Counted from the stretch's first letter, positions 3,953 through 46,037 are shown. The stretch is 64,000 bases of DNA from Minisyncoccota bacterium (GCA_035510575.1 DATKGV010000004.1:88419-152418); one strand, 5' to 3'. Numbers and translations are program-made. Notes: a model not told the origin generated them from the sequence alone.

Positions 3953-3965
3953 ATTGTTATTTGTT

Positions 3966-4007
3966 CCACATGTCGGACTTGTGGCTAGCCACAAGTCCGA
4001 CATGTGG
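3966..4007. repeat. 42-nt perfect palindrome CCACATGTCGGACTTGTGGCTAGCCACAAGTCCGACATGTGG in the rpoB-rpoC intergenic space
   Basis: The reverse complement, computed by hand, equals the sequence. It lies exactly between the rpoB stop (4018..4020) and the rpoC start (3952). Confidence 0.9.
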
Positions 4008-4017
4008 TCTTTTTCCA

Positions 4018-7227: not shown

Positions 7228-7450
7228 ATAAAAAGAAAAACAAAAAAACACCAAGGCGACCAAACCTGTGCGTTATTATTTATTTATAATTGGCAGTGAT
7301 ATTGTTTTTAAGCACAAAAAATGCCTGCTACCCGCTTACAAAACTTATTAAATTAGTGCGATTGATGCCATAACTCAATCTAGTCAATCTGGGTCTGAGT
7401 ATACAGAAAAATAATTCTTTGTCAAGAAAGTTATCAACAGCATCATCGAA

Positions 7451-7540
7451 TTCCTCCTCCCCTGCGAAGGGGAGGATTAAGGAGGGGTGAATTAATTAAT
7501 GCACCCCCTCTGCCCTTTCGGGCATCTCCTTACAGGAGCA
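7451..7540 (-). promoter_or_regulatory. Cluster of four consecutive GC-rich hairpins in the rpoB 5' leader / RAYT 3' region (candidate structured RNA)
   Basis: Stems: CCTCCCC-TGCGAA-GGGGAGG, GGAGGGGTG-N11-CACCCCCTC, TGCCC-TTTC-GGGCA and CTCCT-TAC-AGGAG. On the minus strand the loops read GAAA and UUCGCA. A GGAGG segment is shared between alternative stems. The surrounding DNA is AT-rich. Confidence 0.3.
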
Positions 7541-7561
7541 GTACACCTTTTGGATACTTGG

Positions 7562-7588
7562 AGTAAGCTAGGACAGTCCTAGCTTACT
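7562..7588. repeat. REP-like palindrome AGTAAGCTAGGACAGTCCTAGCTTACT (core AAGCTAGGACAGTCCTAGCTT)
   Basis: Near-perfect palindrome with an unpaired centre base. It overlaps the last codons and the TAG stop of the RAYT gene. Confidence 0.85.
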
Positions 7589-8259
7589 GAAGTGAAATAA
7601 TTTTCAACAAATTTTTGGAATGACTGCTTTAATTGAAAATAATCTGGAAATGCTACTTTATTTAAAATATTACCTTCCACTCTATCGAGACCAAGATAAT
7701 CAAAATAACTTGAATAATTATATGATTCAAGAAAATCTTTCATTGCTTTATTGTCAACATTTTTATTCTTATCCTGTTTTTCCCAACCAGAAAACTTTAT
7801 ATCAAATACATTTAGATGGATATATGCAAAAAGTTGTCGCATATAATTATCATCTGTTTTTATACATTTTGATTTAAAAGGCCCACCGAATAAAGCACCT
7901 TGTCTTTGATATTTTATATTGAAGAACATTGAATATCCTGTACCTAATTTTTTCATAAATTTAGTAATACCACTATCTATTTCCTGTCTAACCAAAATAT
8001 GAAAATGGTTTGCCATAAGACACCATGCGCCAATTGAAACAAGCGGTTTACCCTTATCTAAAATCATAACTTCAAAAAAAGACTTTTTTTGTTGATTTAT
8101 AAGATTATTTAATTTAAATTCCTCCTGAGAATTTGAAATATAAATAAGCATAATAAATCTTTCAAAATCATATTTTGATTTGAAAATAATTCTTTTATCT
8201 ATACCACGATTGTACAAATGATAATATTCGCCAGTGATAAATGGATCTTTTCGCAACAT
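7579..8259 (-). CDS. HUH-family Y1 transposase (RAYT / IS200-like TnpA)
   Basis: Motifs: YHLYNRG N-terminal block, HUH motif NHFHILV, and the catalytic Tyr block YIHLN (compare YIYINP in E. coli RAYT). Confidence 0.75.
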   Translation of the reverse strand: MLRKDPFITGEYYHLYNRGIDKRIIFKSKYDFERFIMLIYISNSQEEFKLNNLINQQKKSFFEVMILDKGKPLVSIGAWCLMANHFHILVRQEIDSGITKFMKKLGTGYSMFFNIKYQRQGALFGGPFKSKCIKTDDNYMRQLFAYIHLNVFDIKFSGWEKQDKNKNVDNKAMKDFLESYNYSSYFDYLGLDRVEGNILNKVAFPDYFQLKQSFQKFVENYFTSVS

Positions 8260-8268
8260 GTCTTGTAT

Positions 8269-8309
8269 TATATACCATAAGCTAGGACAGTCCTAGCTTA
8301 TGGTATATA
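8269..8309. repeat. REP-like palindrome TATATACCATAAGCTAGGACAGTCCTAGCTTATGGTATATA
   Basis: 41-nt near-perfect palindrome 10 nt upstream of the RAYT start. It shares the 21-nt core with 7562..7588. Confidence 0.85.
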
Positions 8310-8343
8310 GAGTTAGAGAAAGATGAATTGATGAGAAATTAAA

Positions 8344-11300
8344 TTAATTTGCTGCATCACTTGGAGGAACTACAGGATCTGGAGCAGATGTAGAATCAGG
8401 CGCTGCAGGCGGAGTCACAACTTGATCGCTTGGGGGAACTGTTGTATCGTCTGCAGGCGGAGTTACTGATGAATCACTTGCAGGAGCTGTCGAATCTGAA
8501 GCTGGAACCGTTGAATCGGTGGTTGCGGGTTCGGTTGCAGATGGTGCTGATGAACCCGAATTGTCTGCGGTAGAGCTTACATGCGCATTATTTAAAATTT
8601 GAATCAATTGCGCTTCGTCAATGCAGGTATTATTGATGCAGATTTCATTGCTGCTATGAATTGTCTTGGCATACAGATCAGCGATGCCATTGGCTTGATC
8701 AGCTAAGAATTGCGTGATGAGCGAACCTAATGAAGTAGCCGAAGTCGTATCAAGAGACGAAAGATCTTTTATTTTGAGATCCATTTCTTGAATGGCTTTA
8801 ACCGCGTATGGCATCATGCCTAAGTAGTTGAGTGATAGAAGATTGGTATTTGGATCGGTAGAAACCAAATCAGGGAAGATTTGCTTTACATCTTGAGCAA
8901 TGAAGCCGGCATGCTTGGCATCGGTGTCTTGTTCAACTTTCCAATTATACGTTACTGGAACTAGAGCAAGTATTTTGTCCAGTGTTGTTATTGGAGTCGT
9001 GCCAAGTTCTGTTTCCGTCCATGCCATGCCATCTAGAGTGTTGACGTTCTTTTTTAAATTCATGTCTGAACTGCAAGCAAAACCGCTTGATATCGGCACA
9101 ACATCGCAAGTTCCTGCGGAAGTTTGAAATCTTCCTACAATTATATTAGCCGTAGTGGAAGCCGAGCCGACATGGAGAAGATAGCCGGGAGCAGTATTGG
9201 AAATTCCGACATCGCCGTTGCCTAATATTCTCATCGCTTCCGTCATTGTCTGCAATGTCGTGCCACTTCCAAGAGTTTTGCCCGTTGAGAAAATTATGTT
9301 CGAAGCTCCTGTGCCTGTGCCTAGACCAGAGTTTAGCAATAGATTTCCGCCAACCACGTTAGAAACAGAAGTTCCAGCGACAGTTGAACCTGATTGAATA
9401 GTCAGATTATTAGGCGCGACGTCAGTGGCGGAATTTTCAATCCACATGGTTCGATCAGCGCCGGCTCCGAATGATAAAATATTGGTCGGCGTACTTGTAC
9501 CAATACCCAAAGTCGTAATGCTGCTATTGCCTATCACCACCTGGTTGCTGGCGGTAGTGTAAGCGGCATTTCCCAGAGCCATTGAGTTGATAGCGCCTAC
9601 AAGCTGGCTGGCGTTACTTCCGGCGTTAGCTCCCAAAAATGTATTCTGATAGCCGACTGTTATAGACGAACCAGCCGAATTACCAATACCCGTATTAGAA
9701 CCATTATTTCCAGAACCATTCGTGAAAGAAGAAAGAGCGGAAACTCCGACAGCGACATTAGCGCCCGCGGCAGTAACGTTAGGCAGAGCGTTAGTTCCAA
9801 AAGCCGTATTGCCAGTAGTAGTTGTTTTTGCCAAAGCCCCATTGCCAACAGCCGTATTATTTCCTCCTGAAATATTTGCCGCCAGAGTGTTCCAACCAAT
9901 CGCTATATTTTGCGAGCCTGATGTCAATACATTCATAGCTCCTATGCCGATGCCGACATTCTTATCACCAGTCATTGCTGGCGGTCTGGCTCCAATAAGA
10001 ATTGAAAGAGGGTTAGCTGTGCCGATGCTCCCAGCGTTATAAACCGAGAATAGAGAACCGCCATTAGCGTCTGCCACGTTGAGAGTTGGAACATTTACTG
10101 TCGTGGTGATTGTCCAGGTAGCGCCTATGCCATGAGTAAGCTTTCCACCGAAAGTAACCGTCACGCCGTTAGATAATGCTTGAGCCGCAAGAGTAATCGC
10201 CGTATCAGCCGAACTAGCTCCGCCGTCCACATTCCAAGTGAACATATCATAACCCTGTAAAGCGGAAATATTGACTGTACAGCCCGTTCCAGTTCCGCCA
10301 GTTGTCGCTACTACTCCCGTTGAATATCCTGATCCGCCAGTCAAAAGTGTCATCGCATTACATCCCCCGCTTGATAAGCTCGTAACCTTTACGGTCGCCG
10401 CGCCATTGCCGCCAGTCAAAGTCAAAACATCATTCACTGTATAACCTGAACCGCCGACTGATTTGGCGACTGTCTTGACCGGATTTATCTCACTGATAGT
10501 AACGACATAAGACGAATTAGTATTGCCGACATAAGTTCCGCCCGCAGTAGCGTCGTTCGTTCCTGAACCTGAGAATACAACCGCTGACCGAGTCGCCAAA
10601 GATTTTACATCAAGAGTGGCGACGGGAGAAGTATTATTTATCCCTAGACGGATATTCGCCCCGTCATAAGCGGAACTAGCCCCGAAAAATATCTTGCCTT
10701 TCGTAGCGTTTGAAGTAGAATTTAAAGTTAGGTTTTCACCAGCGGCAGTACCGCCGTAAACAGTTTGCCCGCCGGCAATGCCGGTAGCCAGATTATCAGT
10801 AATGGTGTTTGTGGAACGAGTTAAGCCCGTGGAAAAAGTAAGAGGCACCTCGTAAGCGTTAGCGTTAGTGAACGCGGCTGAACCAAGAGTTCCCCCGCCA
10901 GTTGGAATAGTTAAAGTCGCTCCCGCCGCCGGCCAAGTTAAAGTTCCCGCCCCGCCGTTATTGGTGAATGTTGTAGTGAAAGTGGCGTTAGAAACGGCCA
11001 CTGCTGTTCCGCCCACTGCCAAAGCGCCAACGTCGGAATAAGTCAAATTCGTGCCATTGATTTTGTAATGAGAACCAGTCGCAATATTAACATCTCCATT
11101 AACATCTAATTTGTAGTTAGGCGCAGTTATTCCTATTCCCACTTTTTGAGCGCTATCTATTCTCATCGCTTCAGTCAAAACAGATGGCGAAGCGTCAGTC
11201 GCTGTAGAAAATGACAAATAAGTAGGAATACGAGTAGAAGCCACTGTACCGGAAACTCCGACATCTATGCTTCCCATTTCAAGATAACTTGCTCCGTCAT

Positions 11301-13923
11301 ATCCCCTGAATAGCAAACGGCCTAACATATCACCTGTGTTTACTGAAAGAAGCGCAGATGGAGTTCCGCGCGCTTTCCAAAATCCCAAGCGGGCAGAGTT
11401 TGTGCCGTTGTTTATTTGTGATGACACAATTCCTCGCGGATCAGAAGTATCAGTAGTAACGACTTGAAGTTTTGTAAGAGGAGCGGTAGTTCCGATTCCC
11501 AGACGATTATTTGTCTCATCATAAGCTGAAGCTCCCATGATTATTAAACCTTTTGTAGCGTTTGAAGTAGAAGTTAAAGTTAGATTTCCTGAAGCGGCAG
11601 TATCGCCGACTAAAGTCGTTCCGCCTGCTATGCCGACATTGTTTTGAAGATAGCCAGTGAGAGATGCAGAAGTCAAATAAGCAACATTGCTTCCCGATGT
11701 TACAAGCCCGCTTGTTCCTACTGTTACATTATTATAAGTTCCTGCAGATGTTCCTGCAGAAGTTAGGAATCCGCCGTAATTTCCCAGATCATTTGTGAAA
11801 GAAGAAAGAGCGGTCGGGAAAGTTGCCAGAGACAAATCACCTCTGAAATATTGAGATGTCGTGCCGGTGGTGATCGTGTTTTGTTTGGCATTGAGGGCAG
11901 TTTGAGTAGCAGTTGATATTGGTTTGTTAGCATCAGATGTATTATCAACATTACTTAGTCCAACTTGAGATTTGGTTAGGCCAGTTAAAGATGAACCATT
12001 GCCATTTGGAGCCAGGAAAACTGTGCCGGCATCAGTAGTGTAGACGCCGTTGGTGACTGTGCCTGCTGTTAATCCTGCGGCGGTACCAGTAATATTTGTG
12101 CCGACTAAAGCAGAAGGAGTTCCAAGGTTGGGAGTGGCAAGCGTCGGAGAGTTTCCAAATACAAGAGATCCGCTTCCCGTTTCATCCGAAATGACTCCTG
12201 CTAATTGAGCAGAAGTGGTAGCGGCAAATGCGGACAAATTATTAGTCGTCAAGGCCACGGTACCTGTAAGATCCGGGAAGGTATAAGTTTTGTCGGAAGA
12301 AGAAAGATGCGCTACATCAAAGATTCCAAATAGTGTCGGCGAAGGGCCATTTTCCAGCATTTTCAGTCCAGCGGAAGAATTATTGAGAACAATATTATAA
12401 GGTGCGGTTTGATTCCAATCCTGAGTCAAAGGACCTAAAGAAAGGACATTAGAAATATTTTGTAAACCATTGCCATAAGATAAGTTTACATTAGCGGATA
12501 GTTGTACCCATTTGGCGAGTGTTCCTGAATAAGTAAATGAAATACCGTAATAAAGAGAACTGGAGTTTTCCACAAAGCGAGCATCACCGCTTGTTGGAGC
12601 AATGCCTGTATAAGTAAAGGCCCCAGGCGTACCGCCTGTCACATTAAATATATAATCTTTAAAACCAGCAAATGTGCCAAAAGGCGCAGTTGAGGATACC
12701 AGCGCCACGCCAAATCGGTCGCCCAAAACCAAAGAATCCAGTTTTACCCACGCGCCATTTTTATATTCTACTATATCGCCCGGAGCAAAAGCGGACCAAA
12801 CACCGGTGTTTCCGCCTGTGTCAATGATATAACCGTCGCCTTCAACAGTGGTTCCGACCGGTGTAGCGGAATTGGCAATAACATTCACAGCTTGAAGCCC
12901 TGTTTTCCAATTCAATCCCATGGCATTATTATCAACGTATGTTTTTACCGCATTTTGCGTTGGATAGAGCGTGTTAGAGGTGCCAAGAGATGTGTTCGTA
13001 GATTTATTGGCAACATCTTCTGGTGTAAACCCTAAGGCAGTATTTACGTCACTCCCAGTAATTCCAGAAATGTATCCGGCAGGATTGGTGGCATTGTAAG
13101 GAGTATAGCCGATAAGTGATGCCACAGAAATATCGCCAGCCCCTAAAAGATTATTAGAATTGATTGTTTTGATATTTGTGCCGGAAACAAGAGTATCTTG
13201 TTTACCAGAAATATCAGTCGTTTGAGTAGCAGCATTTATTGTGAAATTCGGATAAGTGCCGGTAACCGAAGTGATATTAGTTCCCGCTGAAATAGCGACG
13301 GTTTGGTCGGGAGCAATAGATATATCTCCACTACCCAAAAGCGAACTAGAATTGATTGTTTTGATGTTTGTGCCGGCAGGCAAAGTTACCGTGCCGGTAA
13401 AAGTCGGCGAATTGAGAAGTGCGTATAAGCTTGAATCAATTCCTCCCAAGGTCTTGGCATTGATGGCAGCTCCGCTTGAAGTAATACGCCCTCGCGGACC
13501 GAGCGTTTCAAAAGTTATATTATTAGATGAGACCTCCACTTGAAGATAGACGGTATCATTATCTTGGAAATTATAAGTTAGAGCATCAGGATAGCCCGAT
13601 CCTGTATCTCCGATATTCACATCAAAAACACCGTTGGTAACAGAGAGAGTAGCTGTGCCGGGCGAACCTGATGGCCAAAGTTTCGCGCCAGAACCGACAG
13701 TCGGATTATCCCAAATAGAAAATTTAAAATAATAATTTGTGCCTGTTCCTCCCAAAAGAACTCCGTTTGAGTCCGTTAGCCGGCCTTGATAACTAATGAT
13801 ATTAGGAACGCCGGCGGCAGCGTGAGCAACAGAAAAAGAGAAAACGCCCAATATGAACACCGCTAAAATGGCATAGATGCTCTTTGACAAAAAATTATAT
13901 CTCCTTTCAAACATACTTTCCAA
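8344..13923 (-). CDS. Giant (1859 aa) secreted/anchored surface protein with tail-fibre-like repeats and a C-terminal intramolecular-chaperone (peptidase S74-like) domain
   Basis: N-terminal hydrophobic signal/anchor segment. Long G/T/S/N-rich repeat blocks (NTAIG..AL, GIGTTAPxxKLxV). Near the C-terminus, SSDMNLKKNVNTLDG...LALVPVTYNWK...HAGFIAQDVKQIFPDLV...LSLNYLGMMPYAVKAIQEM matches the phage tail-fibre / endosialidase chaperone domain. This is followed by a Pro/Ser/Thr-rich tail. DNA-level internal repeats are visible, for example around 13140..13400. Confidence 0.8.
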   Translation of the reverse strand: MESMFERRYNFLSKSIYAILAVFILGVFSFSVAHAAAGVPNIISYQGRLTDSNGVLLGGTGTNYYFKFSIWDNPTVGSGAKLWPSGSPGTATLSVTNGVFDVNIGDTGSGYPDALTYNFQDNDTVYLQVEVSSNNITFETLGPRGRITSSGAAINAKTLGGIDSSLYALLNSPTFTGTVTLPAGTNIKTINSSSLLGSGDISIAPDQTVAISAGTNITSVTGTYPNFTINAATQTTDISGKQDTLVSGTNIKTINSNNLLGAGDISVASLIGYTPYNATNPAGYISGITGSDVNTALGFTPEDVANKSTNTSLGTSNTLYPTQNAVKTYVDNNAMGLNWKTGLQAVNVIANSATPVGTTVEGDGYIIDTGGNTGVWSAFAPGDIVEYKNGAWVKLDSLVLGDRFGVALVSSTAPFGTFAGFKDYIFNVTGGTPGAFTYTGIAPTSGDARFVENSSSLYYGISFTYSGTLAKWVQLSANVNLSYGNGLQNISNVLSLGPLTQDWNQTAPYNIVLNNSSAGLKMLENGPSPTLFGIFDVAHLSSSDKTYTFPDLTGTVALTTNNLSAFAATTSAQLAGVISDETGSGSLVFGNSPTLATPNLGTPSALVGTNITGTAAGLTAGTVTNGVYTTDAGTVFLAPNGNGSSLTGLTKSQVGLSNVDNTSDANKPISTATQTALNAKQNTITTGTTSQYFRGDLSLATFPTALSSFTNDLGNYGGFLTSAGTSAGTYNNVTVGTSGLVTSGSNVAYLTSASLTGYLQNNVGIAGGTTLVGDTAASGNLTLTSTSNATKGLIIMGASAYDETNNRLGIGTTAPLTKLQVVTTDTSDPRGIVSSQINNGTNSARLGFWKARGTPSALLSVNTGDMLGRLLFRGYDGASYLEMGSIDVGVSGTVASTRIPTYLSFSTATDASPSVLTEAMRIDSAQKVGIGITAPNYKLDVNGDVNIATGSHYKINGTNLTYSDVGALAVGGTAVAVSNATFTTTFTNNGGAGTLTWPAAGATLTIPTGGGTLGSAAFTNANAYEVPLTFSTGLTRSTNTITDNLATGIAGGQTVYGGTAAGENLTLNSTSNATKGKIFFGASSAYDGANIRLGINNTSPVATLDVKSLATRSAVVFSGSGTNDATAGGTYVGNTNSSYVVTISEINPVKTVAKSVGGSGYTVNDVLTLTGGNGAATVKVTSLSSGGCNAMTLLTGGSGYSTGVVATTGGTGTGCTVNISALQGYDMFTWNVDGGASSADTAITLAAQALSNGVTVTFGGKLTHGIGATWTITTTVNVPTLNVADANGGSLFSVYNAGSIGTANPLSILIGARPPAMTGDKNVGIGIGAMNVLTSGSQNIAIGWNTLAANISGGNNTAVGNGALAKTTTTGNTAFGTNALPNVTAAGANVAVGVSALSSFTNGSGNNGSNTGIGNSAGSSITVGYQNTFLGANAGSNASQLVGAINSMALGNAAYTTASNQVVIGNSSITTLGIGTSTPTNILSFGAGADRTMWIENSATDVAPNNLTIQSGSTVAGTSVSNVVGGNLLLNSGLGTGTGASNIIFSTGKTLGSGTTLQTMTEAMRILGNGDVGISNTAPGYLLHVGSASTTANIIVGRFQTSAGTCDVVPISSGFACSSDMNLKKNVNTLDGMAWTETELGTTPITTLDKILALVPVTYNWKVEQDTDAKHAGFIAQDVKQIFPDLVSTDPNTNLLSLNYLGMMPYAVKAIQEMDLKIKDLSSLDTTSATSLGSLITQFLADQANGIADLYAKTIHSSNEICINNTCIDEAQLIQILNNAHVSSTADNSGSSAPSATEPATTDSTVPASDSTAPASDSSVTPPADDTTVPPSDQVVTPPAAPDSTSAPDPVVPPSDAAN

Positions 13924-13992
13924 TTATACAATGATACAAGATTTTTTACAAGATTAAAACAGATTTAGGCGTTAATTATTGGGATATATCGG

Positions 13993-14775
13993 CTACTGTC
14001 TTCTTCTATTTCTTTTAATTCGCGAATTGACGACGAGCAAGTATATGACCGCTGCCAAGAGCAATATTATTATGATGATGAGAATATAAAGGATATGAAT
14101 AAGGTCTTCAACTGTTATGGTAATGGTGGTCGTATAAACATTATCGGAAAGGTGCAATACCGATTGAGTGGGCTGTAATTCTATCGGCTGTTCTGGAACA
14201 TTAGTCGTGGTTGCATTAGGATTTAATTGATTTTGCTGTTCTTCCGGCAGAGGCGAAGGAATATTTTCATTTGCTTTTATTTCGGGCTCGGAAATTGATA
14301 TCGTGCTACCGGATGTGCCATTGAGCGCGTCGCCGGCATTGCCGTCATTTAATAAAACCTTGCCGCTGGCGATATTGATATTCGCATTGCCCACTTCGAT
14401 AGCCCTGAAAGTTATATTGCCTAAAGTGCCGGCTGATCCTTTGTATCCCGGCGATATTATGCCAGCCGAGAAGAAAACTTTGGTCTGGCTTTTATAAGGC
14501 GATCCGGGAGTTTGCATAGTAAAGGTCTGGCCGGGAGACACGCTTACCACCTCAAGTTTGTCAGAACTGAAATTAATTGTCGCTTCAGCGACATTGACTC
14601 TAGCGCCTTTGGTATCGGTCTTGATGGTAACGGTAAAAGTGGAACCGAGAGTTGTATTATAGCTTGCGGGAGTTATATAGAGCGTAGCGGCATCAGCGCG
14701 ATTCGCAAACAGCGCCAAAAAAATCGCTATTACGGCAAAACCAATAATAAATCTTTTTATATTTTCTTTATGCAT
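13993..14775 (-). CDS. Cohesin-like domain protein with signal peptide and C-terminal TM anchor
   Basis: Signal peptide ...ANRADA. Cohesin-like block TLYITPASYNTTLGSTFTVTIKTD...VNVAEATINFSSDKLEVVSVSPG. C-terminal hydrophobic helix plus RIKRNRRRQ. Confidence 0.6.
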   Translation of the reverse strand: MHKENIKRFIIGFAVIAIFLALFANRADAATLYITPASYNTTLGSTFTVTIKTDTKGARVNVAEATINFSSDKLEVVSVSPGQTFTMQTPGSPYKSQTKVFFSAGIISPGYKGSAGTLGNITFRAIEVGNANINIASGKVLLNDGNAGDALNGTSGSTISISEPEIKANENIPSPLPEEQQNQLNPNATTTNVPEQPIELQPTQSVLHLSDNVYTTTITITVEDLIHILYILIIIIILLLAAVIYLLVVNSRIKRNRRRQ

Positions 14776-15913
14776 GATGATTTATGCTATAGCGCCTGAT
14801 TAAAACAAAGCCACCGACAATAATAATAATTATTCCAAGTATAGCACAATATGAAGCGAATGTTGAAAGATATCCGCGATAGTAAACAGCCGCTACGCTT
14901 TCGTTGCCAGCCAAATCAGTGGCTTTTATTTTTACAAGATTTCCAAAAAGAGGCGGATCAAGCGGATATGGGCTCGCAGCTTCATGATAAAATCCGAACC
15001 AGCCGGTTTTCACTTTATAGTTTGCAATGCCGGATGCCTTATCGACAGCGAAAAAATTCAAGAATGATTTGCCGTTGAACATGGAATCATTTTTATCGAT
15101 AATATCCGACAAAAATGTCGGGGCGGTCTTGTCAATTTGCACTCGATAGACCCCGGCCTCTTCCAATATGCCATTAACGGGAATCGCAAGCTTGAAATAA
15201 TATATTCCATCAGGCAGATTATCGTATGTAATAGGGCCTGTGATCGGTTTCGGCTGCATGCTTGGAATAATTTCCGGATTGCTGCCGAAGCTATAGCTGT
15301 AAAGCTCGCCCGTTTTCGCGCCGACAAGAATGACTACGGTATTGTCGCGATACCATTTATTTTCATCCGGATGCGTCGGAGAAGTTATGCTATAAAGTTT
15401 GTTATTCCCAGATAAGACGGAGAAAGCAAGCGGCCGCATGGTGAGAGGAACGACAGTTCCCAATCCGTCATGAAGAAGGACTCGTGTGGGATTAATCGTC
15501 ATTATAACGGCATTGCCGGCCATTTTGGCCTTAAAAACTGTCCGCAGTAATGGGATATGAGAGCCATTTATGCCGCCCGGCGCGCCTCCGGTGAAAGTTA
15601 TAACGCCCGGAGCTATGACTTTCGGCTGATCAACCCAAAGAAGCAAGGCCGATGAGCCGATTGAAACCTCGGTGCTCTCGAGGATATCTGGCGAATAGTA
15701 AAGCTTCGCATCGACAATATTTATGGTTTTGCCTTCCGTGTCTAAAAACCAATCAGCTGAAAAAGTATCGCCGGCATAGACCGTCTGCTCGGCTACGCTG
15801 ACTGAAAGATTGGCGGCATTTGCGATATGGCGAACGCCGGTAAAAGCGCCTAACAGCATGATTAAGAAAATTAATAATTTGCAAGTTATTTTTTTATTAT
15901 CCTGTCCAATCAT
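14768..15913 (-). CDS. Second cohesin-like surface protein with C-terminal TM anchor
   Basis: Signal peptide. Block SVSVAEQTVYAGDTFSADWFLDTEGKTINIVDAKLYYSPDILEST resembles cohesin. C-terminal TM ILGIIIIIVGGFVLI. Confidence 0.55.
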   Translation of the reverse strand: MIGQDNKKITCKLLIFLIMLLGAFTGVRHIANAANLSVSVAEQTVYAGDTFSADWFLDTEGKTINIVDAKLYYSPDILESTEVSIGSSALLLWVDQPKVIAPGVITFTGGAPGGINGSHIPLLRTVFKAKMAGNAVIMTINPTRVLLHDGLGTVVPLTMRPLAFSVLSGNNKLYSITSPTHPDENKWYRDNTVVILVGAKTGELYSYSFGSNPEIIPSMQPKPITGPITYDNLPDGIYYFKLAIPVNGILEEAGVYRVQIDKTAPTFLSDIIDKNDSMFNGKSFLNFFAVDKASGIANYKVKTGWFGFYHEAASPYPLDPPLFGNLVKIKATDLAGNESVAAVYYRGYLSTFASYCAILGIIIIIVGGFVLIRRYSINHHA

Positions 15914-17237
15914 AAAGCATTATTGAAAGATCAATGACATCGACTATGCCATCCTTATTAATATCCGCCCTTGACGTTGCCGGCGGCTTCTTATGCCAGT
16001 AATACAGTAGCATGGAAAAATCAATTATGTTAACTTTACCATCCTTGTTCAAATCGCTGCGCTTATATGAAACAACAGACGGCTTGACTGAAGTGGTTCC
16101 GACGCTAAAAGCCACAATATTGCTTGGATCGGTAATGCGGTCATTTATGGCTGCTCTGGAAAAAGTGCTGTGATTCCCAATAGCCAGCACTGAGGTGTCA
16201 AACTGCTTGAACCAAATGCCGGCGGTTGATGAGATTATTTTCTTTATGAATTCTTGCGCCGAATGCACGTACATCGTAACCTCGGCTTTCGGAACGGTCA
16301 TGCCGAAAATATTAATCGGGTCGCCTTTCTTGACTTCCGTATTGCTTACTCCGATGGTCGGAGCCAAGAAAATATTATTAATATGAATAGTTATGGAATC
16401 GCTGATGCTGACCGGGAAGCTGTAAGTCGGCGATTTCAATCCGTTCGCATCCACGGCATAGACGCCGAAGTTATAATAAGCTGTCGGAAGATTCGCCACA
16501 GTTACGTTGAAAGCGGCGCCCGGATCGGCTGTAGTGACCGAAGCTATCGTGCCGTCTTTAAGAATAGTGACTTTCGTATTCGGATAGGCCATGCCGGAAA
16601 TTTCAACAGATCCGCCGTAAGTTTGCGGATTGCCATTTCCGCCGCCATTATTATTTGGAGGAGGAGTAATTGGATTAGCGCCATTTGGCACGACAGAAAT
16701 TTGAGTAGAAAAAGCGATTGGAAAATTGCCGGTTGTCTTTGCCTTGACGATGAAATAATAAGTTACTCCATTAACTAATCCTCCTTTGGTGAAAGAATTC
16801 ACATTGCCAACATCTTCAAACGTGTAGGAATATGGCGTAGTACTGACGCCGACATCATATCCGATAATTGGAGGATGGCCGATTATAACCGGAGTTGTCC
16901 AGACCAATACGACGCTGCCGGCAGTATTTGTCGAGCTGGTTCCAAGAAGAGTGAATGTGCTGCTGTTATAATATTGAAAGCCGCTCCATAATTGGAAATC
17001 CGAAGATGATGATTTGCCGATGACCATTTGTCCGAGCGATTGCCCTAACCCGAAATTGGCCGAGGAACTGCTGCCAAGGCCTTCCGTAATGACCGGATTT
17101 AATACGGTAAAATTGCTTGAGGATATGGTTGCGCCAAAGCCCGGCATCGGTCTTGAAAAACCGACGATAACGACAATAAGAATTAAAATAGGGAAAAAAT
17201 AGAAATATCTCTTACTCACAAGCATATTATACAACAA
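15897..17237 (-). CDS. Secreted protein with FN3-like region and C-terminal type-I dockerin
   Basis: The C-terminus has two canonical dockerin Ca-binding repeats: SDLNKDGKVNIIDFSMLLYYW and ADINKDGIVDVIDLSIMLYDW. There is an N-terminal signal/anchor segment. Confidence 0.75.
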   Translation of the reverse strand: MLYNMLVSKRYFYFFPILILIVVIVGFSRPMPGFGATISSSNFTVLNPVITEGLGSSSSANFGLGQSLGQMVIGKSSSSDFQLWSGFQYYNSSTFTLLGTSSTNTAGSVVLVWTTPVIIGHPPIIGYDVGVSTTPYSYTFEDVGNVNSFTKGGLVNGVTYYFIVKAKTTGNFPIAFSTQISVVPNGANPITPPPNNNGGGNGNPQTYGGSVEISGMAYPNTKVTILKDGTIASVTTADPGAAFNVTVANLPTAYYNFGVYAVDANGLKSPTYSFPVSISDSITIHINNIFLAPTIGVSNTEVKKGDPINIFGMTVPKAEVTMYVHSAQEFIKKIISSTAGIWFKQFDTSVLAIGNHSTFSRAAINDRITDPSNIVAFSVGTTSVKPSVVSYKRSDLNKDGKVNIIDFSMLLYYWHKKPPATSRADINKDGIVDVIDLSIMLYDWTG

Positions 17238-17279
17238 AATAAAAAATTAAACACTAAAAGAACCGACTAGGTCTTGGCT

Positions 17280-17310
17280 AATCAGCCATAAGTCCGACTT
17301 ATGGCTGATT
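17280..17310. repeat. 31-nt palindrome AATCAGCCATAAGTCCGACTTATGGCTGATT at the trmD 3' end, followed by a T-run on the plus strand
   Basis: The right arm encodes the last codons and the TAA stop of trmD. It shares the GTCGGACTT/AAGTCCGAC core with the rpoB-rpoC palindrome. Confidence 0.8.
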
Positions 17311-18090
17311 TTTATTATTTTTCCATTCTTCTATTTTTTTACGATCTCCTGACAGCAAGACCTTCGGAACTTTATATTTTTTATTGTTATATATTAATAT
17401 TTCTGGCTTGGTATAAATTTCGCTTGACGATATCCGCTCTTCTTCGCGGGAATCAAAATTGCCAAGCACTCCCTTTACTTGCCGAGAAATTGAATCAATC
17501 AAAACCATGGCTGGTATTTCCCCTCCGGTTAAGACATAATCTCCGATTGATATTCTTCTTGCCCCGCCAAGGCGGAGTGAATCTTTAAGAATCTTATCAA
17601 CACGCGCATCAATGCCTTCATAGCGGCCGCAAATCATTATGATGTCGGTATATTTTTTAGAAAAATTCTTGGCCAAAGCTGTCGTAAATTTTTCCGCTGA
17701 TGGAACAAAATTAATAACAAGAGTTTTTGGGCGAAGATTTTGAAAAGATTTTTGAAGTCTGGCCTCGCCTTTTTTAATTTTTCTAGTATTGGCGAGGAGA
17801 TCCGAGGACTTCAAAAATCTTTTCAAAATTGAAGCCCGGACTGATTCAACAGCATTTATAATAGGTTCTGCCATCATCACCATGCCCGGACCGCCGGCAT
17901 AAGGCCGATCATCAATACGTAAAGACATATTGCCGTCAGGCCAGATCTTTTTATATTTGCCGGTGGCAAATTTGCGGGGATTAATGAAGGATACAGAAAT
18001 TTTTTTTAACTTTATCGCCCGCCCCAAAATGGACTCCTTAAGATACGAGTCAAACATTTCCGGAAACAAAGTAATAATATGGAAATTCAT
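17299..18090 (-). CDS. trmD: tRNA (guanine37-N1)-methyltransferase
   Basis: MNFHIITLFPEMFDSYL and further TrmD blocks. Sits in the rpsP-KH-trmD context. Confidence 0.9.
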   Translation of the reverse strand: MNFHIITLFPEMFDSYLKESILGRAIKLKKISVSFINPRKFATGKYKKIWPDGNMSLRIDDRPYAGGPGMVMMAEPIINAVESVRASILKRFLKSSDLLANTRKIKKGEARLQKSFQNLRPKTLVINFVPSAEKFTTALAKNFSKKYTDIIMICGRYEGIDARVDKILKDSLRLGGARRISIGDYVLTGGEIPAMVLIDSISRQVKGVLGNFDSREEERISSSEIYTKPEILIYNNKKYKVPKVLLSGDRKKIEEWKNNKNQP

Positions 18091-18411
18091 TTATATCCCC
18101 TTCAAATCGTCTAACACATTATCAACTGATTTTGACGGACCGGGAGCTGCAGGCATCTTGCTGCCGCCTTCGGGCTCATTAATTTTAAGATTAACGCGAG
18201 CATTATTCTTCATGCCGATAACGCGCAACAGCGTCCTAATAGCTTTCGCAGTATTGCCTTGGCGGCCTATAATTTTCCCCATATCGGCGCTATTAACAGT
18301 CATAGTAATGAGCACGCCCATTTCATCAACCGTTCGGTCGATTTTCACATCGTCCGGATAATCAACCAATGCTTTCACGACATATTCAAGAAACGCTTTA
18401 TCATCTGCCAT
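18091..18411 (-). CDS. KH-domain RNA-binding protein (YlqC/UPF0109-like)
   Basis: Motif GKIIGRQGNTAKAIRTLL. Located between rpsP and trmD. Confidence 0.8.
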   Translation of the reverse strand: MADDKAFLEYVVKALVDYPDDVKIDRTVDEMGVLITMTVNSADMGKIIGRQGNTAKAIRTLLRVIGMKNNARVNLKINEPEGGSKMPAAPGPSKSVDNVLDDLKGI

Positions 18412-18515
18412 ATTTTTATAGTTCTTATAGTATTATTCGTAAATCTATGCAGTGTACCGACTACAAACTGCGTTGCCTACATTGTAACACAATGAGCTTT
18501 TTCGTTGCAATAAGT

Positions 18516-18821
18516 TTAGGACTTCTTAAGTTCTTTGCGGGCTTTTGTCGGAGATTTTTTTGAAAGGATATTTTTCTTTTTGCCTTCGATTAATTTCTTA
18601 TGCACTAGAAAATTATGGATCGTATCGGAAACTTGAGCGCCATTTTTCATCCAATGCGAAATACGGTCGATTTTGAATAATATTTCTCCAGTTTTAACGT
18701 TGTATGAACCGAGAATTTCTTTAAATTTTCCGCTTTTTGTTGAATTTTTTGAATCAGTCAAAACAACCCGGAAAGCCGGATCATTCTTGCGGCCTATTCG
18801 CTGCAGTCGTATCATTAACAT
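18516..18821 (-). CDS. rpsP: 30S ribosomal protein S16
   Basis: MLMIRLQRIGRKNDPAFRVVLTDSKN... matches bS16. Confidence 0.9.
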   Translation of the reverse strand: MLMIRLQRIGRKNDPAFRVVLTDSKNSTKSGKFKEILGSYNVKTGEILFKIDRISHWMKNGAQVSDTIHNFLVHKKLIEGKKKNILSKKSPTKARKELKKS

Positions 18822-18937
18822 AGCGCCATCCTAACATAAAGCCATAAATCAATCAAGTTTTATGCTATACTCTCTATGTGAAGAATCACAAAAAACATAT
18901 AAATTTTAGGCATGATGCAAAGCAAAACAGCCGATAT

Positions 18938-20833
18938 ATGGAAGGCATAATTGGCATATCCAATAAGGGATTTGGAACCGTCAGAATTAAAAACAGCGAT
19001 GAAACAATAGAAATTGATCATAGTTTTCTGCGCACTGCCTGCCATGGCGACACGGTGAAAATACTTCTTCACCCAAAAAAACAAAATAACGGCGAAACCG
19101 GCGAAGTTTCTGAAATAATCAGAAGATCAAAAAAAGGATATTCAGGAATTATTGGCAATAAGAACGGCATATATTTTCTAATGCCCAGCGATTTGAAAAT
19201 GTATTCGGATATTATCATTCCAGAGAACAAATTAAATGGCGCCAAAATTGGACAGAAGGTCTTCGCGTCTATTACTGACTGGGCTGATGCAAAAGTTGCG
19301 CCGATTGGAGAAGTAATAAAAATTCTCGGCAGACCGATGGATAATAATGTGGAAATGGAAGCCATCGCCCTTGAGAAAGGTTTTGATTCAATCTTCCCTA
19401 TTCAAGTTTTGAAAGAAGCTCAAAAAATATCTGAAGATGGAATAAAAGGTAAAGATATGGAAAATCGCCGTGATATGAGAGGAGTGGCGACATTCACTAT
19501 TGATCCAGAAGATGCTAAAGATTTTGACGATGCTTTATCGTTTAAAAAGCTTCCAAACAGCCGTTATGAGATTGGTATTCATATTGCTGATGTTTCATAT
19601 TATGTAAAATTAAATACTGTCTTGGATCAAGAAGCTCGACTTCGGGGCACGTCTGTTTATCTAGTGGATCGCACAATTTCAATGCTGCCCGAAGAGCTTT
19701 CAAATGATCTCTGCAGTTTAAAGCCCAATGCTGATCGGCTGACATTTTCAGCCATTTTTGAGATTGACGAGTATGGGAAAGTTTGGAGCGGTTGGTTCGG
19801 CAGAACAATTATCAGATCCGATAAGCGCTTCACCTATGAAGGCGCCCAGAAAATTCTTGACGATAAAAAGGGCGAATTCTTCGAAGAACTTAATATACTA
19901 AACAGCATCGCAAAGAAACTTTTAAAAAAGCGCTTTGATGAAGGAGCCATATCGCTTGAGCAGGATGAAGTCAAATTCAAACTGGACGAAAAGGGCGTTC
20001 CTATTTCCGTTTATGTAAAGGTGCGCGGCGATACACATAAGCTGATTGAAGAATTCATGCTATTGGCCAATCGCAAGGTTGCGGAGGCATTGTCTCATGA
20101 AGATAAAAATAAGCAGAATATATCTCTTTATAGAATACATGATCTGCCTAATAAAGAAAAAATGAGGGACTTGGCGAATTTTTTCAAAAAATTGGGATAT
20201 AACGTAAAGCTTGCGAATGGCATTATTCCATCGGAAGAAATAAATGCGCTCGTTGCAAAATTTGAAAATAGCCCTATGCGCGATACTATCAGCACCGCTA
20301 TCGTTAGAACTATGGCCAAGGCGGCTTATTCGACAAAAAATATCGGGCATTATGGATTGGGTTTTGAGTTTTATACCCATTTCACTTCGCCAATTCGCAG
20401 ATATCCGGATATAATCGTTCATCGAATGCTTGCAGATTTCCTCAAGGGAAAAATAATACCCAAAGAGCATTGGGCGCTATACGAAGAGATGGCGTTGGAA
20501 GCGTCAAATCGCGAGAAGGAAGCTGCCGAAGCCGAGCGCGCGTCCATTAAATATAAGCAAGTGGAATATATGGGGAGCCGCATTGGAGAAAAATATGACG
20601 GTATGATTACAGGCGTCACCGAATGGGGGCTTTATATTGAAGATAACAAAACAAAATGCGAGGGCATGGTTAAAGTGCGCGATTTGAAAGATGATTATTA
20701 TGTTTTTGATAAAAAGAATATGAGCATAACCGGCAAGAAGACGCATAAAAGATATACATTAGGAAATAAAGTCAGATTTGAAGTTATAGGCGCCGATATG
20801 AATAAAAAGACGATAGATTATGCTTTGGTATGA
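18938..20833 (+). CDS. rnr: Ribonuclease R (RNB-family 3'-5' exoribonuclease)
   Basis: RNB motif TIDPEDAKDFDDALS. C-terminal S1-like block EKYDGMITGVTEWGLYIE. The track ORF starts at 18878, only 56 nt from the divergent rpsP start. The Met at 18938 (MEGIIGISNKGFGTV) is the more likely start. Confidence 0.88.
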   Translation: MEGIIGISNKGFGTVRIKNSDETIEIDHSFLRTACHGDTVKILLHPKKQNNGETGEVSEIIRRSKKGYSGIIGNKNGIYFLMPSDLKMYSDIIIPENKLNGAKIGQKVFASITDWADAKVAPIGEVIKILGRPMDNNVEMEAIALEKGFDSIFPIQVLKEAQKISEDGIKGKDMENRRDMRGVATFTIDPEDAKDFDDALSFKKLPNSRYEIGIHIADVSYYVKLNTVLDQEARLRGTSVYLVDRTISMLPEELSNDLCSLKPNADRLTFSAIFEIDEYGKVWSGWFGRTIIRSDKRFTYEGAQKILDDKKGEFFEELNILNSIAKKLLKKRFDEGAISLEQDEVKFKLDEKGVPISVYVKVRGDTHKLIEEFMLLANRKVAEALSHEDKNKQNISLYRIHDLPNKEKMRDLANFFKKLGYNVKLANGIIPSEEINALVAKFENSPMRDTISTAIVRTMAKAAYSTKNIGHYGLGFEFYTHFTSPIRRYPDIIVHRMLADFLKGKIIPKEHWALYEEMALEASNREKEAAEAERASIKYKQVEYMGSRIGEKYDGMITGVTEWGLYIEDNKTKCEGMVKVRDLKDDYYVFDKKNMSITGKKTHKRYTLGNKVRFEVIGADMNKKTIDYALV

Positions 20834-30464: not shown

Positions 30465-30487
30465 TCCCATAGGTCTGACCTATGGGA
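30465..30487. repeat. REP-like palindrome TCCCATAGGTCTGACCTATGGGA
   Basis: Palindrome with arms of about 11 bp and an unpaired centre base. Lies 3 nt after the thrS stop and contains the TAG stop of RAYT2. Confidence 0.85.
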
Positions 30488-40398: not shown

Positions 40399-40423
40399 GA
40401 AGCTATTCTAACATATTTTTTAA

Positions 40424-41803: not shown

Positions 41804-41812
41804 AAAATATGT

Positions 41813-42775: not shown

Positions 42776-42780
42776 ATATA

Positions 42781-46016: not shown

Positions 46017-46037
46017 AAATAATTTAATTTCTCTTAG

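Follow-up and report, generated by a model that had tools for sequence, protein, structure and literature searches.

Bacteria of the CPR/Patescibacteria have no outer membrane, and the prevailing view is that they live fastened to host cells; few answers are at hand as to what keeps their attachment organelles in place. The locus described here encodes cohesin and dockerin modules. Outside cellulosomes, the structures 2w1n, 2vo8 and 2jh2 are Clostridium perfringens cohesin plus FN3 and dockerin modules belonging to secreted glycoside hydrolase/toxin complexes, and 2xdh is a cohesin of Archaeoglobus fulgidus. The Pam pilus is a CPR-specific surface filament that is donor-strand-assembled from Sec-exported Ig-like subunits (Troman et al. 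2026, bioRxiv 10.64898/2026.03.03.709456). Its pilins occur mainly in Saccharimonadia and Microgenomatia, its accessory and anchor proteins are held by TM helices at their C-termini, a gene resembling a tail fibre lies in the same locus, and in the Pam model PamR is a membrane-anchored FnIII terminator; the preprint does not mention cohesin or dockerin (bioRxiv 10.64898/2026.03.03.709456). Of the N-terminal domain in the mosaic adhesive trimer (MAT) fibres of Bdellovibrio, the authors write that it “would presumably tightly bind a surface element”, one that had yet to be found (PMC10769870).

Here we analyse three genes, gA, gB and gC, that lie beside a giant fibre gene in a 64,000-nucleotide stretch of DNA (the window). 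The annotation of their domains is not new: gC is listed at NCBI as a “cohesin domain-containing protein”, and gA relatives are listed there as “dockerin type I domain-containing protein”; we found no paper that describes this cohesin-dockerin system. New relative to an earlier, sequence-only reading of the window are the PamT-like N-terminal module of gA (gA_N), the CPR-wide distribution of the trio with its gene order kept, and the parallel with MAT fibres.

A dockerin protein and two membrane-anchored cohesin proteins

The sequence-only reading had described two TM-anchored proteins with cohesin-like N-terminal domains and an adjacent, co-directional gene ending in two dockerin Ca-binding repeats, and all of these elements are present on the minus strand at the coordinates given there (Table 1). 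The reading frames overlap in operon-like fashion, gA sharing 17 nt with gB, and gB 8 nt with gC. A gap of 69 nt lies between gC and the fibre gene and contains a promoter-like TTGTAA-17-TATAAT sequence at 13951-13923. The trio supplies two cohesin proteins per one dockerin protein, which we count against the tether reading set out below.

Table 1. Features of the trio and the adjacent fibre gene (coordinates in the window)
Feature	Nucleotides	Strand	Length or residues	Basis
gA, dockerin protein	17237-15897	minus	446 aa	ORF
gA_N, module directly after signal peptide	16953..17132	minus	~60 residues	alignment conservation, NCBIfam PamT match
gA stalk: FnIII, Gly-rich linker, two Ig-like domains	16083..16952	minus	~96-185, 189-203, ~205-385	Pfam, AlphaFold, Foldseek
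gA dockerin	15900..16061	minus	393-446	Pfam Dockerin_1, loop pattern, AlphaFold helices
gB, cohesin protein	15913-14768	minus	381 aa
gB cohesin	15404-15823	minus	31-170
gB two Ig-like domains	14876-15391	minus	175-346
gB C-terminal TM helix, basic tail after	14795-14863	minus	~351-373
gC, second cohesin protein, short form	14775-13993	minus	260 aa
gC cohesin	14281-14694	minus	28-165
gC Pro/Gln/Thr-rich linker	14101-14280	minus
gC C-terminal TM helix, then tail RIKRNRRRQ	14026-14100	minus		hydropathy
Giant fibre gene	13923-8344	minus	1,859 aa
fibN, conserved beta-rich N-terminal domain of fibre	13444-13842	minus	28-160
Fibre S74 intramolecular chaperone-protease	8863-9069	minus	1619-1687	Pfam Peptidase_S74

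gA is composed of a signal peptide, the PamT-like N-terminal module, an FnIII domain, a Gly-rich linker, two Ig-like domains and a dockerin, in that order. Pfam Dockerin_1 (PF00404) matched residues 394-440 above its cut-off (E 3.6e-9, 37.1 bits vs 22.9), and the two loops, DLNKDGKVNIID at 16020-16055 and DINKDGIVDVID at 15930-15965, are each followed by a helix (residues 404-412 and 434-442 in the AlphaFold model). When searched against the PDB, the family profile found cellulosomal dockerins (e.g. 2y3n_B, E 2.5e-5). Across 47 family members the domain is almost invariant and its Ca ligands are invariant, the unchanging positions being D395, D399, D406, S408, D436, S438, W444 and G446. Judged by the profile match and by two DxNxDGxxxxxD Ca loops, each with its predicted helix, the C-terminus of gA is a type I dockerin. 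The loop pattern matched nowhere else in the six frames of the 64-kb window. Within the stalk, Pfam recognized fn3 (E 1.7e-5) and Big_6 (E 2.1e-5), the AlphaFold model (pLDDT 79.5 for gA) has the strand pattern, and Foldseek found tandem FnIII chains. The only hydrophobic segment is N-terminal, and gA is predicted to be secreted and to lack a membrane anchor. gA has more than 148 homologues of ~435 aa, all from CPR wherever the source names an organism.

Cohesin assignments were obtained differently for gB and gC. Pfam Cohesin (PF00963) matched residues 42-149 of gC (E 4.6e-7, 30.6 bits vs a cut-off of 24.1), gC is identical to P0176, a [quoted passage not shown], and its family profile found the Clostridium thermocellum anchoring cohesin 5g5d (E 0.004). 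The Pfam check proposed in the sequence-only reading succeeded for gC and failed for gB, which by itself had no Pfam match. Pfam Cohesin did match 10 of 35 gB orthologues (best E 1.3e-7), BLASTP aligned gB with gC (33% identity over 120 aa, E 4e-10), and hhalign aligned the two families with a probability of 100% (E 3.8e-40, 170 columns). The AlphaFold model of gB (pLDDT 90.7, with a helix at residues 351-380) had cohesins as its best Foldseek matches in the PDB (2w1n, E 6.7e-10; 2vo8, target TM-score 0.80, rmsd 2.6 Å) and also matched 2xdh (TM-score 0.72). Cohesin modules predominated among these matches, in keeping with the nine-stranded beta-sandwich (jelly-roll) fold of the family. By its paralogy to gC, its orthologues and its predicted fold, we conclude that gB is a cohesin protein. 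With gC recognized by Pfam and gB by its family profile, the cohesins did not fail profile searches and the dockerin is not left alone. Each cohesin protein has only one cohesin, an N-terminal hydrophobic segment taken as a signal peptide, and a second hydrophobic segment at the C-terminus, after which comes a basic tail; Pfam returned no SLH match, and reading the C-termini of gB and gC revealed no LPXTG. The 55 homologues of gB are, where the source names an organism, all from CPR.

The N-terminal module of gA, the giant fibre and the distribution of the trio

Directly after its signal peptide, gA contains three S-x-[NS]-[FY]-x-[LV] motifs, and this module, gA_N, is the block of highest conservation in the gA family alignment. 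AlphaFold predicted it to be disordered in the monomer (pLDDT <50, residues 39-91), and such high conservation in a segment predicted to be disordered suggests that the module is buried or partner-bound. With the signal peptide removed, gA_N of 6 of 6 diverse members matched positions 26-83 of the NCBIfam PamT model, in register (E 1e-5 to 3e-2); the similarity is short, ~55 residues and ~25 bits, vs a PamT equivalog cut-off of 240. Full-length gA scored 26.2 bits against PamT (NF058579; the same cut-off of 240), with only model positions 7-95 matching. These alignments make gA_N a homologue of the PamT N-terminus; PamT is one subunit of the donor-strand-assembled CPR pilus. A gA_N profile retrieved 1,321 cluster representatives (clusters at 50% identity), and the module was always located at ~residues 25-95, directly after the signal peptide. 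These carriers are ~100-640 aa long, and a protein of 1,636 aa in L112 also has the module; 7 of 10 carriers sampled for lengths unlike that of gA have a C-terminal dockerin. A protein family in which the two ends, gA_N and the dockerin, are conserved and the stalk between them varies in length looks like an adaptor. The module is thus widespread, occurring in more than 1,300 clusters and mostly paired with a C-terminal dockerin, and it extends the story of the Pam pilus.

The fibre protein consists of a signal peptide, the conserved domain fibN, a long variable Gly/Thr/Ser/Asn-rich body, an S74 chaperone-protease and a Pro/Thr-rich tail, and its only hydrophobic segment is N-terminal. Pfam Peptidase_S74 matched with E 4.1e-14 (53 bits vs a cut-off of 22), and the SDxxxK motif is present as S-D-M-N-L-K at S1619. 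NCBIfam Bdello_MAT_N gave a match that is weak against its cut-off of 60 (E 1.3e-4, 21.8 bits), at the same position and of the same size, and we regard homology of the two domains as insecure. fibN is 72-73% identical to its counterparts in two related loci (L003 and L009), whereas gB there is only 41-43% identical and the fibre bodies differ; such a difference is typical of a domain on which a conserved partner imposes constraint. The giant fibre is a probable cargo or partner of the trio.

The gene order dockerin protein, cohesin plus Ig plus TM protein, second cohesin protein was present in 26 of 28 sources (the window and 27 loci), these 26 being all of the examined ones with a true gB orthologue. 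Among the lineages represented are Doudna-, Komeili-, Kerfeld-, Uhr- and Terrybacteria and Paceibacterota, all of them Patescibacteria, and even a miniature trio (L028; proteins of 261, 298 and 666 aa) keeps the order. This conservation across CPR strengthens the earlier proposal of a non-cellulosomal anchor with a dockerin-bearing partner beside the fibre, which our results support. In most loci with enough flank, an ORF of 1,000-9,700 aa adjoins the trio. The gene order came back in loci found in metagenomes via fibN, among which gA or the trio adjoins in L033, L034, L051, L053, L066, L080, L089 and L110. The association varies: the giant neighbours in L013, L017 and L019 are other proteins that end in Gly-rich tails and are not fibN/S74 fibres, the trio of L011 is accompanied by glycosyltransferase-like genes (judged by sequence alone) instead of a giant gene, fibN fibres occur with no adjacent trio in L112 and L107, and short fibN proteins of ~340 aa are found in glycosyltransferase-rich loci. 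The genome of L017 contains extra cohesin and dockerin ORFs. When the tree of the dockerin was compared with that of either cohesin (mirror-tree), their correlation did not exceed the background level set by unrelated domains. We count this result, the varying neighbourhood and the shortness of the PamT similarity against the tether reading set out below.

Some related loci also resemble Pam loci. Pam_pilin_C (NF058581) had no match in gA, gB, gC or the fibre, and only below-cut-off matches in the distant related loci L001 and L005. No PapD/FimC-like chaperone of the PamC/PamD type was seen in gB, whose predicted fold is cohesin plus Ig-like, not PapD-like; the PamC/D candidates in related loci are genes separate from gB and gC. 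In L001, L005 and L021-L025, a short gA (Ig plus dockerin) followed by gB occupies the position where the Pam model puts PamR, and by analogy this arrangement suggests a “split” anchor.

A proposed tether and its alternatives

We propose that the trio is a non-cellulosomal cohesin-dockerin tether on the patescibacterial cell surface, probably anchoring the fibre, and we give this reading a probability of roughly 0.55. gB and gC would be Sec-exported and kept in the cytoplasmic membrane by their C-terminal helices, with the basic tails in the cytoplasm, and the single cohesin of each would be held off the membrane, by the two Ig-like domains in gB and by the flexible Pro/Gln/Thr-rich linker in gC. 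gA would be secreted, and its internally symmetric, Ca-binding C-terminal dockerin would plug into the cohesin of gB or gC; we consider it quite likely that the dockerin pairs with one or both of them. The three FnIII/Ig-like domains of gA would project outward through the wall, with the PamT-like module at the distal end, and gA_N, disordered alone, may fold by beta-strand addition onto a partner. The likeliest partner here would be fibN, the strongly conserved N-terminal domain of the S74-processed, trimeric fibre next door, and the trio would then serve to anchor a host-attachment fibre at the cell surface. The data show the domain identities, the predicted topology, the overlap of the genes, the conservation of the trio and of its order across CPR, the frequent giant neighbours and the repeated pairing of gA_N with a dockerin. 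Binding of the dockerin to these particular cohesins, binding of gA_N to the fibre and a role of the trio in host attachment are what we infer, and it is only tentatively that we name the fibre as the thing anchored.

Alternatively, the trio could be a self-contained surface adhesin or spacer, in which the dockerin docks on gB or gC, gA_N is the working tip for a host or matrix ligand, and the fibre is merely a co-located and co-regulated host-attachment gene. The trio does lie beside differing giant genes and once beside none, some fibN fibres occur without it, the 69-nt gap supplies the fibre gene with a separate promoter-like site, and gA_N is found on proteins of many sizes, including the 1,636-aa protein. 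A host-binding tip, however, is expected to vary between lineages, and yet no part of gA is more conserved than gA_N, which is predicted to be unable to fold alone; the variable element is the fibre body, and the high conservation of fibN suggests an internal partner. We consider this explanation unlikely. A variant of the donor-strand Pam pilus, in which gA is a PamT-like tip or base subunit and gB and gC are assembly factors (PamC/PamD counterparts) that hold the gA dockerin transiently during assembly, would account for the match of gA_N to the PamT N-terminus, for the Pam_pilin_C matches in related loci (E 2.2e-11 and 4.3e-7) and for the C-terminal-TM accessory proteins and co-located tail-fibre-like gene that the Pam system also has. 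It appears quite improbable, given that the window has no Pam pilin, that gA reaches ~26 bits vs 240, and that the fold of gB is a cohesin, with no PapD/FimC chaperone among the best 50 PDB matches listed. Moreover, Pam-like loci hold gB and gC plus two separate TM-anchored proteins of ~300-330 aa that are better PamC/D candidates, which argues that gB and gC are an addition and not chaperones.

The cohesin-like and dockerin-like modules might also not bind each other, with the cohesins binding wall glycan or the host surface and the dockerin being a Ca-stabilised fold or binding a partner encoded elsewhere. Consistent with this possibility, the dockerin showed no extra co-variation with either cohesin, and the additional cohesin and dockerin ORFs in some genomes (L017) indicate that partners need not be neighbours. 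Against it, every orthologous locus has the dockerin gene directly upstream of a pair of cohesin genes, in many cases with reading frames that overlap, and the dockerin has kept its Ca ligands and its two helices almost unchanged across deep CPR lineages. To our knowledge, every solved structure that contains a cohesin and a dockerin is a cognate complex (from cellulosomal or Clostridium perfringens systems). We regard a lack of mutual binding as very improbable. Cellulosome-like enzyme display, for which nothing speaks but the cohesin and dockerin modules themselves, is scarcely credible: gA has FnIII/Ig domains only, there is a single cohesin per protein, and the 64 kb hold no other dockerin loop. 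The sequence-only reading had noted an absence of glycoside hydrolases, and the scan bears this out: no GH, CE, PL or CBM was found in the ~33 ORFs scanned (small ORFs in part), which effectively refutes a cellulosome for the window.

The tether reading can be extended to a generalization that we find doubtful, namely that Patescibacteria fasten giant host-attachment filaments to the cytoplasmic membrane via cohesin and dockerin, with gA_N/PamT-N as the universal filament-binding end of length-adjustable adaptors. In loci such as the window these filaments would be S74 trimeric fibres of a MAT-like kind, and elsewhere they would be Pam-like pili with giant tip adhesins; the adaptors would share a layout of gA_N, a variable number of FnIII/Ig domains and a dockerin. 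A conserved trio beside giant fibre genes provides a concrete anchor hypothesis for CPR attachment organelles, and it bears on the question left by the Bdellovibrio MAT work of what binds the conserved fibre N-domain (PMC10769870). If the generalization is true, it would identify for the first time what sort of surface element holds the N-domains of MAT-type fibres, and would give CPR biology a modular, exchangeable “fibre socket”. The tether would also broaden the known uses of cohesin and dockerin from enzyme display to the anchoring of cell appendages. If only the pairing is as it appears, the result would still be a useful annotation of a set of protein families widespread in CPR.

Comparison with MAT fibres, Pam pili and cohesin-dockerin systems

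Like Bdellovibrio MAT fibres and phage S74 tail fibres or spikes, the fibre has a signal peptide, a conserved beta-rich N-domain of ~130 aa, a long variable body and a C-terminal S74 domain with SDxxxK (PMC10769870). It differs from the Bdellovibrio MATs in its weak Bdello_MAT_N match, in belonging to a monoderm CPR bacterium and in the linkage of its gene to a cohesin-dockerin trio, which is unreported for MATs. With the Pam pilus, the trio shares its place in a CPR surface system and the similarity of gA_N to the PamT N-terminus, and distant related loci carry Pam_pilin_C-like genes; in contrast to Pam loci, the window, which comes from Paceibacterota, has neither PamA/B/E pilins nor PapD-like chaperones.

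In the anchoring scaffoldins of cellulosomes (C. thermocellum SdbA/OlpB/Orf2p and R. flavefaciens ScaE), a cell-bound cohesin captures a dockerin-tagged partner, as is proposed for the trio, and the dockerin of gA resembles cellulosomal type I dockerins in its above-threshold Dockerin_1 match and its two symmetric Ca loops. The predicted anchor of the trio, however, is a TM helix with neither SLH domain nor sortase signal, and there are no enzymes, CBM or multi-cohesin scaffoldin. The non-cellulosomal pairs of C. perfringens and A. fulgidus also have single cohesin modules outside a cellulosome and are the best structural matches of the gB model, and in 2w1n, as in gB, the cohesin is followed by an FnIII/Ig-like domain. 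Unlike these pairs, the cohesins of the trio appear to be held by a C-terminal membrane helix, its dockerin is borne by a stalk of FnIII/Ig domains that contains no enzyme and has a conserved module at its N-terminus, and the three genes form a fixed unit that is found in Patescibacteria only, beside giant fibre genes.

Domain content and setting of the trio

The sequence-only reading had proposed that two membrane-anchored proteins with cohesin-like N-terminal domains are encoded beside a co-directional gene ending in dockerin repeats, next to a giant fibre gene. This arrangement was confirmed: gA (the dockerin stalk protein), gB (a cohesin, Ig and TM protein), gC (a second, short cohesin and TM protein) and the fibre gene are four co-directional genes between trmD and an IS200-like gene, beyond which lie rpoB and rpoC. 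gA overlaps gB by 17 nt and gB overlaps gC by 8 nt, while a 69-nt gap carrying a promoter-like site precedes the fibre gene. Across the window, promoter-like sites (38 found versus 27.6 +/- 5.6 expected from shuffling) and terminator-like sites (8 versus 10.9) are close to shuffle level, and the only noteworthy ones are the promoter-like site 5' of the fibre gene and, following trmD, a strong hairpin. The hairpin, a perfect palindrome with a 14-bp stem (AATCAGCCATAAGTC-CGA-CTTATGGCTGATT), lies across the 3' end of trmD, with the gA start about 45 nt further downstream, and may be a terminator that separates trmD transcription from gA.

Coordinates of features in the window
Feature	Position	Strand	Length
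trmD	17299-18090		
hairpin	17280-17310		
gA	17237-15897	minus	446 aa
gA dockerin repeat, first	16020-16055		
gA dockerin repeat, second	15930-15965		
gB	15913-14768	minus	381 aa
gC	14775-13993	minus	260 aa
fibre gene	13923-8344	minus	1,859 aa
IS200-like gene (Y1 transposase-like ORF)	7579-8259	minus	
rpoB	4018-7263		
rpoC	314-4018		
second Y1 transposase-like ORF	30480-31205	minus	
ORF without Pfam match	27890-28624	minus	244 aa
ORF without Pfam match	39622-40398	minus	258 aa
purine biosynthesis genes	~40400-54400	minus	
ORF without Pfam match	46082-47821	minus	579 aa
surface-protein cluster	56602-61430	minus	

gA consists of a signal peptide, a module of ~60 residues (gA_N), one FnIII domain, a Gly-rich linker, two Ig-like domains and the dockerin. 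Both calcium-binding repeats are present as proposed; Pfam Dockerin_1 matches residues 394-440 at 37.1 bits (cut-off 22.9), the AlphaFold model places a helix behind each loop, and the dockerin family profile retrieved cellulosomal dockerins from the PDB. Foldseek comparison of the gA model returned generic tandem FnIII chains only, the gA_N region being unmodelled. In related loci, most gA dockerins carry a Cys within the first Ca loop (DLNCDG) and a second one ~6-8 residues earlier, and the two could form a disulfide; the gA of the window has K and Y at these positions.

Profile searches upheld the cohesins as well. gC exceeds the Pfam Cohesin cut-off (30.6 bits versus 24.1) and is 100% identical to an NCBI 'cohesin domain-containing protein [Candidatus Paceibacterota bacterium]', which assigns the window to a CPR (Patescibacteria) genome; gB as a single sequence has no Pfam Cohesin match, but 10 of 35 gB orthologues do. 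gB aligns with gC by BLASTP (33% identity over 120 aa, E 4e-10), and the two families align in hhalign with a probability of 100% (E 3.8e-40). Neither gB nor gC had a significant match when searched as a single sequence against PDB sequences, and because the gB family profile reached PDB cohesins only at E 0.45-0.89, we used fold comparison: the best PDB matches of the gB AlphaFold model (pLDDT 90.7) are cohesins, headed by 2w1n, a cohesin-FN3 module from Clostridium perfringens that is non-cellulosomal, and by the cohesin 2vo8 (target TM-score 0.80). Four independent lines (BLASTP, hhalign, orthologues and fold) identify gB as a cohesin. In gB the cohesin is followed by two Ig-like domains and a TM helix; gC of the window is a short form, with a cohesin, a Pro/Gln/Thr-rich linker and a TM helix. 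By hydropathy and model, both proteins have a signal peptide, a C-terminal TM helix and a basic tail, in agreement with the proposed membrane anchoring, and by hydropathy gA and the fibre have a signal peptide only and no C-terminal TM helix (signal-peptide cleavage sites were placed by eye).

The remainder of the window is housekeeping (gyrB, pheST, thrS, smc, rnc, nusB and the purine pathway), and Rfam and tRNA scans of it gave no matches. A phage origin of the module was rejected: its flanks are housekeeping genes (trmD, rpsP, rpoB/C), and a pattern-based scan of IMG/VR, requiring exact short patterns, found no relatives of gB or of fibN, the N-terminal domain of the fibre; since our genome-collection scans rest on short exact patterns, absences in them are weak evidence. 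The two IS200/IS605-type Y1 transposase-like ORFs match Pfam Y1_Tnp at E 5e-6 and 2.7e-5, and the first, directly downstream of the fibre gene and before rpoB, also weakly matches a REP-associated tyrosine transposase. A separate cluster encodes three predicted surface proteins of 752 aa (SpaA_2 + DUF7507), 497 aa (Ice_binding-like + DUF7507/DUF11) and 360 aa (Ice_binding-like + PG_binding_1), with no sequence kinship to the trio. Many CPR (Patescibacteria) genomes lack nucleotide biosynthesis, so the purine genes of the window, which make up a nearly complete set for the de novo pathway (adenylosuccinate lyase, SAICAR synthetase, AIR synthase-like, GARS, formyltransferase, amidophosphoribosyltransferase and parts of FGAM synthase), are worth attention. 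Three ORFs matched no Pfam family at the thresholds applied; the longest (579 aa) lies in a low-GC stretch (0.30 versus ~0.40 for the window), and GC is also low at 30-32 kb and 54-56 kb.

Distribution of the trio across CPR

Homologues of gA (>148) and gB (55) all come from metagenomes, and all those with an assigned organism are CPR. When per-domain HMMs were searched in 27 loci and the window, the order dockerin protein, cohesin-Ig-TM protein, second cohesin protein was found in 26 of the 28 sources; these 26 are all the sources in which a true gB orthologue occurs. Among the lineages are Doudna-, Komeili-, Kerfeld-, Uhr- and Terrybacteria and Paceibacterota, and a miniature trio (261, 298 and 666 aa) has the same gene order. 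The trio adjoins a giant ORF (1,000-9,700 aa) in the majority of loci whose flanks are long enough (synteny counts cover ~110 loci, many of them truncated).

Two types of locus can be distinguished. Type 1 loci, like the window, have a long gA with gA_N, often beside a fibre with fibN and an S74 C-terminus. In type 2 loci gA is short, with Ig and dockerin and without gA_N, and upstream of it are a giant protein, a 340-420-aa protein matching NCBIfam Pam_pilin_C below its cut-off (E 2.2e-11 and 4.3e-7), and two ~300-330-aa proteins with C-terminal TM helices, which in L001 lie at 7128-8033 and 8088-9083. In L001, L005, L021 and L023-L025, all of type 2, the giant protein and the Pam_pilin_C-like protein (for example L001:3-5858 and L001:6014-7051) share the C-terminal motif ...AGxYxxTVTYVTVGLF; on the strength of this motif, the giant protein may therefore be a tip adhesin that is built into a pilus.

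The second cohesin protein of most other lineages is larger (400-850 aa), with an added gB-like Ig region. The long form (in L005, L012, L013, L017:11157-13226, L018, L019 and L028) has a conserved, charged, coiled-coil-like cytoplasmic tail after the TM helix, ...LLxDLxxIExYxxKEIWDIE..., that is absent from gC of the window; its sequence may point to a connection of the surface tether with something in the cytoplasm. Many loci also have, directly upstream of gA, a small N-terminally membrane-anchored protein of ~135-166 aa (L011:7543-8025, L012:7615-8064, L017:8131-8625, L019:7510-8010, L028:4716-5571 in two copies, and L089:16410-17338) with the conserved core ...ATITDPEKLKDQPFFANAK...LIEVAPL... 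(L028) or ...YQAVFLTNGQVYFG...ILFWENM... (L017, L019); in the window trmD occupies this place. The 797-kb contig of L017 carries, downstream of the trio (14800-19065, +), one more cohesin ORF (440 aa) and two ORFs with dockerin-like segments, so the cohesin-dockerin network of some CPR genomes may be larger.

The gA N-terminal module and the fibre

gA_N, with three S-x-[NS]-[FY]-x-[LV] motifs, is the most conserved part of the gA family, and is modelled at pLDDT <50 in the monomer. Its profile matched 1,321 cluster representatives among 1.84 billion proteins (294 at E <= 1e-10), always at about residues 25-95 of carriers of ~100-640 aa. Ten carriers that differ from gA in length were sampled: seven had a dockerin at the end and three matched the PamT N-terminus. 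One plan recurs, with gA_N first, FnIII/Ig domains in variable number next and a dockerin last; with two conserved ends and a stalk of adjustable length, it looks like an adaptor. At L112, which lacks the trio, a 1,636-aa protein (9696-14603, +) two genes after an 837-aa fibN/S74 fibre starts with a gA_N-like motif (...FADEATSTNFT...); therefore, gA_N is not restricted to dockerin stalks.

The fibre consists of a signal peptide, fibN (~130 aa), a long low-complexity body and a Peptidase_S74 domain (an intramolecular chaperone-protease) with its SDxxxK motif at S1619. Loci with only 41-43% identity between their gB proteins have fibN domains that are 72-73% identical. A metagenome scan recovered 208 fibN relatives, most on contigs that break within the fibre gene. 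Most of the 80 contigs of L033-L112, recovered through fibN, end inside the fibre ORF a few kb from its start, and such broken assemblies fit strain-level hypervariability or repeats of the fibre body. Short fibN proteins occur in glycosyltransferase-rich surroundings at three loci.

A proposed surface tether and its alternatives

We favour, at a probability of about 0.55, the reading that the trio is a surface tether for an appendage. gB and gC would sit in the membrane with their cohesins facing outward, and the Ca-loaded dockerin of gA would plug into one of these; the three-domain stalk would carry gA_N outward, where it would fold onto a partner, most plausibly fibN of the adjacent trimeric fibre, and the trio would thereby anchor a host-attachment fibre. 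Dockerin-cohesin pairing within the trio is judged likely. The rival view, that these modules do not bind each other, has to be set against a dockerin almost invariant in 47 family members, Ca ligands included; in mirror-tree comparisons of 23 non-redundant trios, dockerin-cohesin correlations (r 0.43-0.55) fall below those of pairs with no expected contact such as the gA middle and the gB C-domain (r 0.82), which for so short and highly conserved a dockerin speaks neither for nor against binding. We rejected a cellulosome: the ~33 window ORFs scanned contain neither a glycoside hydrolase, as the sequence-only reading had stated, nor a CBM, and six-frame inspection of the 64 kb found no dockerin loop besides the two of gA.

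That the fibre is the cargo is a tentative proposal, and the trio might instead be a self-contained adhesin. gA or the trio adjoins a complete, flanked fibN fibre in eight loci (L033, L034, L051, L053, L066, L080, L089 and L110) and is absent beside one in two (L107 and L112). A variant of Pam-type assembly is a further rival. In the Pam pilus of CPR, the pilins PamA/B/E are assembled via donor-strand exchange, PamT is the tip subunit, the chaperones PamC/D are membrane-anchored, and a tail-fibre-like gene is co-located (10.64898/2026.03.03.709456). gA scores 26 bits against the PamT model (cut-off 240), and gA_N of six diverse members, without the signal peptide, aligns in register with PamT positions 26-83, a weak but specific match. 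Because gA_N is in register while the score is far below the cut-off, gA shares a module with PamT without being PamT itself. No Pam pilins were found in the window, and gB and gC were rejected as PamC/PamD, as their fold is that of cohesins and better chaperone candidates coexist in type 2 loci.

For the tether that we favour, some elements have precedents: non-cellulosomal cohesin-dockerin pairs and the NCBI annotation of these domains were already known, and a preprint on Omnitrophota giant genes discusses dockerin-like repeats, not in CPR. Our searches of the literature found no description of a CPR-wide trio, of its anchoring by membrane helices, of its pairing with a PamT-like N-module or of its linkage to a giant fibre. 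The fibre has the layout of the mosaic adhesive trimer (MAT) fibres of Bdellovibrio and weakly matches their N-domain model; the invariant MAT N-domain is presumed by its authors to bind a surface element still to be found (PMC10769870). PamR, the proposed terminator and anchor of the Pam pilus, has two FnIII domains between an N-terminal strand and a TM helix (10.64898/2026.03.03.709456). By analogy, the short gA and gB of type 2 loci look like PamR split in two, in which a dockerin, plugging into a TM-anchored cohesin, would take the place of the TM helix.
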